DNA from: a virus
Lineage: Duplodnaviria; Caudoviricetes
Virus record (IMG/VR): IMGVR_UViG_3300042346_000140
Coordinates: 1 to 24,921 of that record
Strand: one strand, 5' to 3'
Length of the DNA stretch: 24,921 nt
Below, one piece after another: positions 13,008 through 24,921 of the stretch; positions within the stretch are counted from its first letter, which is position 1; each line of letters begins with the position of its first letter. A program made the translations under genes and the position numbers. The notes under the pieces were generated by a model, which was not told the origin of the DNA, made no database searches, and saw only the letters and a list, made by a program, of their open reading frames with translations.

Positions 13008-13249
13008 ACTCAATGATTGCTAAAACTTTGGACCTTTCACAACGACTTGTTTCGTTGTTTATTGCATCGGCTTTGCCGATTATTACTGGTGGTGCAATCC
13101 TTGGAGTAGATGTAGTTAAGTCTGCTGGTGTTGCTGGACTTACAGCTTTGTTTGGTGTGGTACAGAAACTTGCTGCTGCTTCAGTTGATGGTGAACTTAC
13201 ATCAGAAGAAATCTCTGCTGCTTTCGGTACTAAAACTAAGAAGAAGTAA
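13004..13249 (+). CDS. putative holin
   Basis: Start moved to ATG 13004 (ATGA overlap). Two hydrophobic segments and a KTKKK tail, directly before the endolysin. Confidence 0.7.
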   Translation: MNSMIAKTLDLSQRLVSLFIASALPIITGGAILGVDVVKSAGVAGLTALFGVVQKLAAASVDGELTSEEISAAFGTKTKKK

Positions 13250-13797
13250 TGAAAAAGAATTGGCCTATCGTTAAGGTTGTATTGCCTGCGGATCTTAAAG
13301 GTGTAAAACCTGGTGCCCTTCCAGACTCACTTCTCCGAGACATTCAACCTTACGGTAGGCTTCATTGGCGTGCAGCTGATGCATATCATGCGATGCGTGC
13401 AAAGGCGTTAGCTGATGGGATTAAACCGTTTAAGCCTACGTCTGCGGGGGATACATACCGTACGCTTGCTATGCAAACAACAGCATTCTTGCAGCGTTAT
13501 CAGAAAGAACCTATTGCTGGTGCTTCAACTCGTACTTGGGATGGTGTTAAGTGGTACAAGAAGTCTGAGAAGTTAGCGTCGCTTGCGGCGCCAGGTACGT
13601 CTCAACATAATCTTGCTATTGCTGTGGATATCAGCGAGGCAAGTGGTAAACGTTTTGAGTGGATGCTTGCTAACGCACCAGCGTTTGGATTTAGCTGGGA
13701 AGTAGTTCCAGAAGAACCATGGCATTTGCGTTTGGTAACTGGGGATAACCCTACTCCTGCTGTGCAGGCATGGGTTGATGCACAGAAAGCCGTATGA
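13249..13797 (+). CDS. endolysin, peptidase M15 (VanY-like D-Ala-D-Ala carboxypeptidase fold)
   Basis: YR...Q, PGTSQH...D and EPWH Zn-binding/catalytic motifs. Confidence 0.88.
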   Translation: MKKNWPIVKVVLPADLKGVKPGALPDSLLRDIQPYGRLHWRAADAYHAMRAKALADGIKPFKPTSAGDTYRTLAMQTTAFLQRYQKEPIAGASTRTWDGVKWYKKSEKLASLAAPGTSQHNLAIAVDISEASGKRFEWMLANAPAFGFSWEVVPEEPWHLRLVTGDNPTPAVQAWVDAQKAV

Positions 13798-13798
13798 G

Positions 13799-14020
13799 AT
13801 GGACGGGGGCTGGGCGCTAGTACTCTCTGCTGTAGTTACTACGGTAGGTGGAGTGTTGGTTGCTTTAATTGCACAGTTCCGTAAAGAGAACAAAGAAGAT
13901 CACGCTGTAGTTGCGGGGATGCTTTCCCATATATATAGAAGTGTAGGAAGAGTTGAAACGAAGGTGGACAAAGTTGAGAACAAACTCAACGACCACATCA
14001 AGGAACATAACCGCAGTTAG
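13799..14020 (+). CDS. single-TM coiled-coil membrane protein (lysis cassette)
   Basis: Start moved to ATG 13799. N-terminal TM helix, then RVETKVDKVENKLNDHIKEH coiled coil. Confidence 0.7.
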   Translation: MDGGWALVLSAVVTTVGGVLVALIAQFRKENKEDHAVVAGMLSHIYRSVGRVETKVDKVENKLNDHIKEHNRS

Positions 14021-14021
14021 T

Positions 14022-14173
14022 TAGACCTGTCTGTGCCCCCCGTCGGGTTGCCACAGTCCGACTCCCTATTTCAATCACAGCGCCTTGCCACATGACGTGG
14101 CAATCGACCCAGGTTCCCCTGTTTACGTCCCACCCCTTGCGACAGGGGCACAACCATGCGCCTAATAAATTGT
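14022..14173 (-). ncRNA. candidate structured ncRNA, copy 1 (family unassigned)
   Basis: Multiple nested stems, a minus-strand promoter directly upstream and sequence homology to 24831-24912. The strand is inferred. Confidence 0.6.
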
Positions 14174-14179
14174 GTTCAC

Positions 14180-14208
14180 ACAGTAGCGTAATGCTTGCAA
14201 CTTTGCAA
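14180..14208 (-). promoter_or_regulatory. leftward promoter
   Basis: Minus strand TTGCAA (14208-14203), 17 nt, TACTGT (14185-14180). Confidence 0.6.
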
Positions 14209-14223
14209 CATGTGTACTATAGT
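14195..14223 (+). promoter_or_regulatory. rightward promoter
   Basis: TTGCAA (14195-14200), 17 nt, TATAGT (14218-14223). Confidence 0.7.
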
Positions 14224-14230
14224 TTCATCG

Positions 14231-14277
14231 TAGCCCAGAGGGGTTTTGGTTCTTCCCTTCCTTTGCCCTCTGGGTTA
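14231..14277 (+). promoter_or_regulatory. 5' leader hairpin with pyrimidine-rich anti-SD loop
   Basis: 12-bp stem TAGCCCAGAGGG/CCCTCTGGGTTA. Loop TCTTCCC can pair with the SD GGGAGGA (14290-14296). Confidence 0.6.
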
Positions 14278-14299
14278 CACTTAACAAACGGGAGGAAAC

Positions 14300-14500
14300 A
14301 TGAGTAAATTCAAAGAATCGTTGAAAACAAAAATCAAAGTAAATCCACGGGAAGCAATCAAACAATTACTTGATAAAGAATCGTACGCAGATTTTGAAGC
14401 AGCTTTGAAAGATCAATCTGTTTCATCGGCAGCCATTGGATCCACGCTCCGAGAGTTCGGGGTACAAGTATCCAACATGACTATCCAACGCTGGAGATAA
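14300..14500 (+). CDS. small helical, possibly HTH-like protein
   Basis: Strong SD GGGAGG; C-terminal SSAAIGSTLREFGVQVSNMTIQRWR resembles a helix-turn-helix. Confidence 0.6.
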   Translation: MSKFKESLKTKIKVNPREAIKQLLDKESYADFEAALKDQSVSSAAIGSTLREFGVQVSNMTIQRWR

Positions 14501-15658: not shown

Positions 15659-15739
15659 CACATACACGCGCGCGCCTGTGCGCGTGCATAAATAAAGGTG
15701 TGCCCCCGCGCGGCCCAATCTGCGGGGAGAAACCAGACG

Positions 15740-16033
15740 ATGACGAAGAATGAGCTCACCTATATATATGTGACGTGGATCGACGCGCACTCGGGTAGCG
15801 AAACGTGGACCAACATACGCGACCTTGACCAAGAACCCGTGCTCGTGCGCACGGCAGGATTCCTACTACCGCAATCAGATGGTGGCAAGGAAGGGCACAT
15901 CACCATATATCAGAGCATCACCCCGAACGATGATGTAGATCATGTTCTACACATACCGACGGCGATGGTCAAAGAATTCAAGTGCATCCAAATAAATCTT
16001 GAATCAAAGGTTGTGTCCATCCCCCTGACGTGA
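15740..16033 (+). CDS. conserved phage hypothetical protein (VxWxDA motif)
   Basis: Start moved to ATG 15740 (SD GGGGAG). YVTWIDAHS...RTAGFLL...HIPTAMV. Confidence 0.7.
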   Translation: MTKNELTYIYVTWIDAHSGSETWTNIRDLDQEPVLVRTAGFLLPQSDGGKEGHITIYQSITPNDDVDHVLHIPTAMVKEFKCIQINLESKVVSIPLT

Positions 16034-19110: not shown

Positions 19111-19265
19111 CAGACGAGATGTTAGTTAGTGTGTCAAAGTTTCTGCGTCGCGCATTCGTTGGCAGAATGGAAGAAGAAGAACTTGTCAATTGTGTATCGG
19201 TAATAGAACACGAACTAATGAGAAGGAGGATTGATGCTGCCAGAAAACATAGATCGATTCGTTGA
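19107..19265 (+). CDS. 52-aa hypothetical protein
   Basis: Not in the ORF track. MTDEMLVSVSKFLRRAFVGRMEEEELVNCVSVIEHELMRRRIDAARKHRSIR; ATGA overlap with whiB. Confidence 0.65.
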   Translation: MTDEMLVSVSKFLRRAFVGRMEEEELVNCVSVIEHELMRRRIDAARKHRSIR

Positions 19266-19611
19266 TAGGTTGTGTGCGCTGTACCCCAACAGGCAGGTAG
19301 CACGCAACACAATCAAGTCTGGCTGGAGAGTGGACAAAGAACTCTTGGCTGCATCGGTACACATGTGTCGCAGGGTTATTGATATTGTGGAAAGAGACGG
19401 AGAGTTTCCATCACTACATAGAATCAAAACCTTACTGAAAGACATGAGACCCAATGATCAGATCACCACATGCACGGTTTGTGATGGGTCGGGTTGGGGT
19501 GAAAGATACACAGCACTATCGGAGACTGGGAAAGAATACACATACGTCAGGCCATGCATATGCAGGGAAGGGATAACACATGAAACGTCATTGGAATTGC
19601 AGCACTTGTAA
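19234..19611 (+). CDS. helical domain plus CxxCxGxG...CxC Zn finger (possible replication helper)
   Basis: SD AAGGAGG; CTVCDGSGW...VRPCIC. Confidence 0.65.
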   Translation: MLPENIDRFVDRLCALYPNRQVARNTIKSGWRVDKELLAASVHMCRRVIDIVERDGEFPSLHRIKTLLKDMRPNDQITTCTVCDGSGWGERYTALSETGKEYTYVRPCICREGITHETSLELQHL

Positions 19612-20517: not shown

Positions 20518-20596
20518 CTTGACCTGCGCAAGCGCGCGCGCGCGTGCGCCTGCACGGGCGAGCGCGCGCGTTCTTTCCACTGCGAAAAATTGCCCC

Positions 20597-24099: not shown

Positions 24100-24112
24100 G
24101 GTATATGACATA

Positions 24113-24175
24113 GTGGATAGGTTATTAACCCTAATTGTGTTTATTATTGCTTGGTTACTAATCAGTAACCGTTAG
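24113..24175 (+). CDS. possible 20-aa single-TM peptide
   Basis: GTG...TAG encodes MDRLLTLIVFIIAWLLISNR, coupled by a TAGTG overlap to the 5-codon ORF 24096-24113. Confidence 0.35.
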   Translation: MDRLLTLIVFIIAWLLISNR

Positions 24176-24183
24176 GGTTATTA

Positions 24184-24224
24184 AGCCCCTTAGGGACTTT
24201 AATCCCTTGTGTCCTTAAGGGGCT
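24184..24224 (+). terminator. 14-bp hairpin ending the early operon; loop carries TCCCTTGT
   Basis: AGCCCCTTAGGGAC/GTCCTTAAGGGGCT stem; no U-tract. Confidence 0.55.
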
Positions 24225-24331
24225 ATACCCTACTGCTACCACTACCAACACCGTCTAGGTCTAGCGTAAAGACCTACGGCATACGGCAGGGAGTAGGGGT
24301 GGGGTGCTACTACTAATCGGCGAGATTGCAG

Positions 24332-24391
24332 CCGATTTGCAATCGGCTTGCGGTGGTGGTAGCGTGGTTGATGTTGGCAATTCCGCCAACA
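24332..24391 (+). promoter_or_regulatory. early-type promoter cassette B
   Basis: TTGCAA (24337), 17 nt, TG-G-TAGCGT (24360); palindrome GCCGATT-TGC-AATCGGC over the -35; downstream hairpin TGTTGGC/GCCAACA. Confidence 0.7.
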
Positions 24392-24410
24392 CTAAACAAG
24401 GGAGATAGTC

Positions 24411-24656
24411 ATTACTACTAACCAATATAAATTAGGGTCTTGGGGCATAGTCTCAGGCTCTAAAAAAGATAAGACAGCCGTTTACGGAATCAAAGTCTGG
24501 AACGGTCAGGGCGCTATCAAATCAGGCGAGATAGTGCGAGTCATAAATTGGAAAGGCCAAGAATCACTAGTGGCTCTAGGCGTAAAGATAAAGCCAGTCG
24601 CTGAGACTGTAGAGACTAAAGGATATACGCTCTACGCTCTAGCCAATAAGAAATAG
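24411..24656 (+). CDS. 81-aa basic beta-rich protein with ATT start codon
   Basis: Not in the ORF track. The open frame (I/M)TTNQYKLGSWGIVSGSKKDKTAVYGIKVWNGQGAIKSGEIVRVINWKGQESLVALG...LANKK has SD AAGGGAG 6 nt before ATT and is flanked by a promoter and a hairpin. Confidence 0.7.
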   Translation: MTTNQYKLGSWGIVSGSKKDKTAVYGIKVWNGQGAIKSGEIVRVINWKGQESLVALGVKIKPVAETVETKGYTLYALANKK

Positions 24657-24660
24657 GCTC

Positions 24661-24704
24661 TAGGCTCGGTAAGCCTCTAGGCAACTAGGGGTTTGCCGAG
24701 CCTA
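24661..24704 (+). terminator. 20-bp hairpin with GCAA tetraloop
   Basis: TAGGCTCGGTAAGCCTCTAG-GCAA-CTAGGGGTTTGCCGAGCCTA; three G-U pairs indicate a + strand RNA; begins 4 nt after the stop codon. Confidence 0.75.
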
Positions 24705-24830
24705 TCCCACCCCCCAGGGGGGGTAATACCCGTCCTGTATATGTGTGGATTTGTTACATTTTCTGTGGTTAACGGCGCTAGTTTGTGTGTATACGGTACA
24801 CATACGCTGGTTAACTGTCACGAATCAACC

Positions 24831-24921
24831 TAGAGCTGTCAGCTCCCCCCACGGTTCGCATCCTTTATGGAGCAGGTCGCCGTAGCCAAGCTATTTAGCC
24901 GACACCTTAGTTGATGATGTA
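24831..24921 (-). ncRNA. candidate structured ncRNA, copy 2 (3' part; truncated by window edge)
   Basis: Collinear motifs shared with 14022-14071; minus-strand stems with G-U pairs and a potential pseudoknot. Confidence 0.55.

Follow-up and report, generated by a model that had tools for sequence, protein, structure and literature searches.

What is encoded in the gap between the lysis cassette, which ends at position 14020, and the early operon, which starts at 14300, in the genome of a freshwater phage? The sequence analyzed here, referred to as the window, comprises all 24,921 nucleotides of record IMGVR_UViG_3300042346_000140, an actinophage-like virus record from fresh water that is 64% complete. 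Its genes include those for a capsid protein, a VanY endolysin, a YqaJ exonuclease, an annealing protein, WhiB and an AAA ATPase; the accessible portion of a freshwater virome study (10.1101/670067) treats WhiB as a marker of actinobacterial hosts. A preliminary description of the window had placed in this gap an independently promoted, structured antisense RNA of unassigned family, ending in a run of G. The comparative analysis below supports this proposal, replaces part of the proposed fold, and leads to a tentative assignment of function.

The element is a pseudoknotted RNA on the minus strand

Homologues were collected from viral and metagenome contigs by protein-anchored and pattern scans, which yielded 255 anchors, 157 of them unique, in 61 clusters below 90% identity. 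The upstream loop was present in 105 of 120 pattern matches in the metagenome scan. The resulting family fold consists of a hairpin P2, a GNRA-capped hairpin P3, a variable hairpin P4, a hairpin P6 and a terminal G-tract (Table 1).

Table 1. Features of the RNA element and its surroundings (positions in the window)
Feature	Position	Strand	Remarks
-35 hexamer, leftward RNA promoter	14203..14208	-	Overlaps divergent rightward early promoter
-10 hexamer, TAnnnT	14180..14185	-	26/26 lineage members
5' leader, variable	14155..14173	-	Homologue comparison
P2 hairpin	14127..14154	-	Internal non-canonical pairs; loop UCGC at 14142-14139
J2/3 joiner, A-rich	14122..14126	-	Homologue comparison
P3 hairpin, four pairs, GNRA loop	14110..14121	-	100% of cells paired
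J3/4 conserved joiner, GGUAGA	14104..14109	-	Window copy: C replaces usual A
P4 hairpin	14085..14103	-	Sequence and length highly variable across family
Pseudoknot partner of P2 loop	14080..14083	-	One base past P4
GGGA and P6 hairpin, GGCAA loop (type I 3' domain)	14042..14066	-	P6 itself at 14062-14042
G6 tract	14036..14041	-	Family consensus GGGNGG
Second paralogue, type II 3' domain	24842..24921	-	G6 at 24850-24845; 5' core lost at contig end
VanY-type endolysin and small lysis-cassette gene	13249..14020	+	RNA points head-on at both
Divergent rightward promoter, early operon	14195..14223	+	Promoter scan
Putative G39P-like helicase-loader-like gene	19231..19611	+	Zn ribbon; no initiator adjoining

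The upper helix of P2 is paired in 90.5% of cells, and P3 shows compensatory changes at three of its four pairs; the conservation of P3 is biased, because its letters belonged to many of the search patterns. For P2 and P3 together, 89.2% of cells pair in 42 sequences, versus 67.8 in shuffles, and 85 two-sided changes were counted (0 of 500 shuffles). The first four pairs of P6 are formed in all 53 parsed clusters. The joiners J2/3 and J3/4 together probably constitute a loop-E-like module. In L142, L149 and other miniphage copies, P2 contains an internal loop that may resemble the 11-nt GAAA-tetraloop receptor.

To assess the pseudoknot between the P2 loop and the strand beyond P4, P4 was placed by its own pairing and the partner was read at a fixed offset. 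At pair 2, 41 clusters have C-G and 18 have U-A, both exceptions being mis-parsed P4s; two additional loci have G-C. Pair 4 is C-G in 58 clusters and U-A in one. Pair 1 is loose; it is U-C in 14 clusters, the window among them.

Folding z-scores of 14030-14155 are modest, at -3.29 on the plus strand and -2.68 on the minus strand, and do not discriminate between the two. The minus strand assumed in the preliminary description was settled by the homologues and not by folding energy, because the GNRA loop and the G-U wobble changes work only on that strand. On the RNA strand there is a G-skew averaging +0.22 (n = 54), sequence conservation drops off just past the G-tract, and no U-tract terminator was found after the G-tract in the window sequence. 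We conclude that the element is a real RNA gene, as judged from its homologues, of about 140 bases, pseudoknotted and extending on the minus strand from about 14173 to 14036.

The window does contain, where the preliminary description placed them, the stems that it quoted, the TTGCCACA repeat and the three C-runs, but not all of these belong to the conserved fold. The outer stem, 14032-39 with 14145-52, is strong in the window (-18.5 kcal/mol, versus -15.5 for the local P2), but across the family it is favored over the local P2 in only 10 of the 66 members (permutation p = 0.13). It may represent a local alternative in which the G-tract is hidden, and it may still be relevant to the sub-lineage of the window. 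The duplication of TTGCCACA is a lineage-specific coincidence, because P4 covaries away from TTGCCACA. We therefore do not retain a multi-state switch that relies on the outer stem and on the octamer repeat; the conserved fold is a different pseudoknot. None of the 11-mers of the RNA recurs elsewhere in the genome of the relative G006, where no self-targeting guide was seen.

Promoter and transcript data

In the window, the leftward promoter has a 17-nt spacer; it was not called by a consensus promoter scanner. In all 26 members of the lineage, which are related and not independent, a promoter of the form TTG-16/17-TAnnnT precedes the loop by 36-40 bases; such a promoter was seen in 39 of 497 background windows. 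The promoter proposed earlier is thus conserved at a fixed distance, and its spacing would place the transcription start near 14173.

The metatranscriptome data consist of contigs, from 7 RNA runs of 23 listed, possibly from one campaign. On the lysis side, contigs end at 14151, 14154, 14119, 14062 and 14016, and two end before 13800. These ends are compatible with a minus-strand start or with the end of the late mRNA alike. No metatranscriptome contig covers 14155-14293, which is covered by run X17, whose type is not on record, and no separate contig for the RNA is found among the seven RNA runs.

Selection on one strand would also be seen if the structure acted as single-stranded DNA, e.g., as a lagging-strand or restart signal, and G-T pairs and hairpins can form in single-stranded DNA. 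The upstream promoter at a fixed distance and the GNRA loops point to RNA, however, and we regard a DNA element as very improbable.

Within the early-operon leader, at 14232-14278 on the plus strand, there is a long conserved hairpin whose pyrimidine-rich loop is complementary to a Shine-Dalgarno sequence and whose stem changes are compensatory among relatives. Two small intergenic gaps contain CG-dinucleotide palindromic runs (15660-15690 and 20525-20585).

A paralogous copy and exchangeable domains

The preliminary description had counted two copies of the element. A second one does exist, at 24842-24921, but as a paralogue whose 3' domain differs and which is truncated where the contig ends. 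The region 15680-15880 was also considered as the second copy, and rejected. In G006 the paralogue is full-length, with the same 5' core, the different (type II) 3' domain and the same G6 end, and it is also antisense. Among relatives of 38-41 kb, both copies are found in G006-G012, G050, G051, G058 and G072, whereas G013-G017 keep the type II copy alone; the copy at 14036-14173 is therefore optional. Downstream of the type II copy, 24100-24840 is a long non-coding stretch with many hairpins and short repeats, a possible origin or packaging region.

A covariance model matches 29 of 40 records, including 9 of 11 near-complete ones. G059 and G061, the two complete records that it misses, retain the G-tract and the type II 3' domain behind an unrelated 5' module; G065 has the same swapped form plus one type I copy. 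In place of the pseudoknot core, this module (L582:9640-9780, plus strand; also in G061, and in G065 at L592:4470-4640) has a hairpin capped by GAAA and a GUUCG motif that resembles a T-loop; it is a second candidate RNA family. In G059 and G061 the slot between lysis and early genes is occupied by another foldable non-coding stretch with a G-tract (L583:2480-2760, plus strand).

The replaceability of the 5' core while the G-tract domain persists bears on whether the RNA acts in trans, as a stable decoy or scaffold for a host protein or machine such as polymerase, the ribosome, a nuclease or a defence sensor. Neither this exchange nor the lack of a terminator that would set the 3' end is expected of such an RNA. 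The invariant core nucleotides, the GNRA loop and the dedicated promoter would all suit it, as would the variation in position, orientation and copy number among lineages and the lack of a consistent phage protein partner. On balance, we consider a trans-acting role unlikely.

Comparison with known RNAs

Rfam 15 gave no match for the window and, at 13 homologous loci (4 + 9), only weak off-target matches, in searches that extended to E 5-10. ARAGORN found no tRNA or tmRNA in the window. By blastn, only chance matches were obtained in cultured phages, and one chance match in plasmids; the regions covered of four cultured VRR-NUC relatives, which are partial, do not contain the RNA. In GTDB, searched with one pattern that divergent host copies could escape, seven of seven matches look like chance coding sequence. 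No description of the RNA was found in the literature, where the supplements of two screens, Fremin 2023 and Weinberg 2017, were only partly covered and may hold the motif; the core motif is absent from the searchable part of the Fremin 2023 supplements. With covarying stems in its homologues and no Rfam family, the RNA represents a real class of phage RNAs, apparently not catalogued before, whose covariation is unusually clean.

The raiA motif RNA (RF03072), which seemed to share a loop with the phage RNA, served as a lead only. Both are orphan RNAs in which a hairpin loop is pseudoknotted to a distal linker. The raiA model matched none of five records, and the closing P1 with bulges and the second pseudoknot described in the accessible parts of two reports (PMC12968392, PMC10861870) are absent from the phage RNA, which is on these three grounds not raiA. 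In addition, the partner strand of the phage RNA lies outside P4, and the RNA is phage-borne whereas raiA is chromosomal. The ROOL, GOLLD, ARRPOF and freshwater motifs are likewise structured non-coding RNAs of phages or mobile DNA, of unknown function, but the phage RNA, in the window and at the 13 homologous loci, matched none of them in Rfam 15. The pRNA of phi29 was rejected, given no Rfam match and no phi29-type packaging motor (the miniphages have portal and terminase).

The compact core, short pseudoknot, conserved joiners and GNRA hairpin are reminiscent of a ribozyme, self-cleaving or otherwise, that would process its own transcript or the early mRNA, and in miniphages the RNA would be co-transcribed right behind a stop codon. 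Yet Rfam ribozyme models matched neither the window nor the 13 homologous loci, and in the window lineage the promoter already sets the 5' end. A ribozyme is accordingly an improbable reading.

Gene context in other lineages

The 15-kb miniphages have one copy of the RNA, in sense orientation, between the stop codon of a VRR-NUC resolvase gene and an HNH-terminase gene. It directly follows VRR-NUC in 70 of 80 miniphage relatives by HMM and in 6 more by eye; the remaining 4 are cut short. Miniphages of 13.5-15 kb are also reported in the accessible portion of the freshwater virome study (10.1101/670067). HNH and large terminase form a single ORF in the miniphages (L461:5540-7300), within which many contigs end.

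This position immediately upstream of the HNH-terminase fusion, with no separate small terminase shown, and that of the type II copy just ahead of the terminase block would fit an RNA that helps terminase to find or cut the genome end. The window copy and those of a 33-kb lineage are far from terminase, though, and no phi29-type motor genes were seen, so that a packaging role seems quite remote.

In the 33-kb lineage, the RNA directly follows a homologue of the loader-like gene of the window. The evidence that the product of this gene is G39P-like is modest: one of 61 relatives matched Inhibitor_G39P (E 1.5e-6), a G40P-loader model ranked 28th (E 0.52), and Foldseek against the PDB with a model of the protein gave no match. 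No large initiator-sized gene lies directly upstream at any of 80 loci of this family, where the two nearest ORFs were inspected. A similar Zn ribbon ends the window protein and the L612 initiator (L612:238-999), which suggests that the gene in the window may be what is left of an initiator-loader module.

In a small sub-lineage, the RNA lies 0.5-2.6 kb after a true initiator gene (phrog_270, E 3e-45); RNA and intact initiator occur together in L612, L721, G046, G047 and G082. Thus, the RNA is not a strict replacement for an initiator.

Every one of these contexts is a boundary between early and late genes, and both window copies face the end of a plus-strand operon, with a divergent promoter or a block of genes behind them. 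Control of transcription at operon boundaries would therefore be conceivable, by antitermination where the RNA is sense, and as a roadblock or antisense brake where it faces an operon end. The brake on lysis envisaged in the preliminary description fails as a family function, as most members are sense and far from lysis genes. More generally, one fold would need to do opposite jobs in sense and antisense lineages, and it is rare for antisense RNAs to maintain an invariant tertiary core; we hold transcription control to be about as improbable as a ribozyme.

Replication genes in carriers

HTH_36, DnaB_C, Prim-Pol, Toprim_2 and phrog_270 were sought in 38 records at least 90% complete, i.e., 36 carriers and two with the 3' domain only, and matched none of them; in particular, the 36 near-complete carriers have no detectable initiator, DnaB, primase or Prim-Pol. 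ORF-level Pfam scans of the part of G006 outside the window and of the miniphage G024 likewise gave no replication-family match, and the sole Prim-Pol match is in G018, which is RNA-negative. This absence is weak evidence, because the same replication-family searches all came up empty for the four cultured-phage controls as well; most records were chosen for carrying the RNA, and remote initiators could be missed. GC skew at fourfold sites is -0.26 in sense miniphages, +0.12 in the sense 33-kb lineage and -0.09 in the antisense lineage, and does not track the orientation of the RNA.

Proposed function as a replication-origin RNA

Because of the genes that surround it, and because replication proteins were not detected in its carriers, we rank highest the idea that the RNA is an R-loop primer or cis-acting replication-origin RNA that works through its G-rich 3' end, a role also raised in the preliminary description. 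We propose it tentatively, as a plausible role and the most likely one when set against decoy, ribozyme, transcription control, packaging and single-stranded DNA signal. It builds on what was observed of the RNA: its fold and strand, its conserved promoter, its terminal G-tract, where it occurs and which genes lie beside it. Host RNA polymerase would transcribe the RNA, and the pseudoknotted core would fold co-transcriptionally. The RNA 3' end would then be held on the template by a hairpin and, in place of the U's of a terminator, the rG:dC pairs behind it. The persistent RNA-DNA hybrid could serve as a primer or open the origin through host enzymes, much as PMC4412123 and PMC5043065 describe for ColE1 and T4, and host RNase H, Pol I and restart proteins, together with the loader-like, annealing and resolvase proteins of the phage, would establish a fork. 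In the 38-kb lineage, the copy at 14036-14173 would be a second, optional origin.

Retention of the G-tract where the entire 5' domain has been exchanged (G059, G061, G065) counts in favor of an origin role, as do the three contexts (VRR-NUC, G39P-like loader, initiator), the single copy per miniphage, the G-skew of the RNA strand and the drop in conservation past the tract. The co-occurring initiator, the GC skew without signal and the fact that no antisense copy-control RNA was identified count against it. So do the observations that regulatory RNAs and packaging sites may equally sit at the end of an early operon, and that the invariant, ribozyme-like core seems to exceed the obvious needs of a primer.

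The closest parallel is RNA II of ColE1/pMB1, which forms a protein-free, rG/dC-dependent hybrid according to the accessible parts of two reports (PMC4412123, PMC5043065). Both are promoter-driven structured non-coding RNAs, if the phage RNA is transcribed as its promoter implies, with an rG tract over a dC template, in replicons most of which, for the phages on the weak evidence above, lack a detectable initiator. In contrast to RNA II, the phage RNA is about 140-210 nt long, not about 550 nt, and has no sequence or Rfam similarity to RNA II or RNA I. It is found in tailed phages, not plasmids; no RNA I counterpart was found, some carriers keep an initiator, and the hybrid, known for ColE1, is predicted only. 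The T4 origins oriF and oriG similarly combine a promoter with a transcript that would remain hybridized, but they rely on an unwinding element and a self-encoded replisome, whereas the phages considered here have a conserved RNA fold, and no replisome was detected in them. SPP1, which has two origins and an initiator-loader pair according to the accessible part of one source (PMC6316719), shares with the window lineage a G39P-like loader (G38P/G39P/G40P system), an annealing protein, an exonuclease, a resolvase and two candidate origins per genome. It differs in that complete carriers of the RNA have no detectable G38P-like initiator or DnaB helicase, and that the RNA often abuts the loader-like gene.

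Implications

A new, strongly covarying RNA class is carried by common freshwater phages. As a more speculative and rather doubtful extension, it may represent a widespread modular class of origin RNAs, in which an exchangeable pseudoknotted 5' domain and a G-tract 3' domain prime replication, so that abundant freshwater tailed phages down to 15 kb could drop initiator, primase and helicase. Were the RNA a ribozyme or decoy instead, it would still be a new functional RNA. If priming is true, it would explain how many small tailed phages replicate without recognizable replication genes and would provide a marker for phage origins; mechanistically a variant of the ColE1 type, it would extend RNA-primed initiation from ColE1 plasmids to lytic phages.
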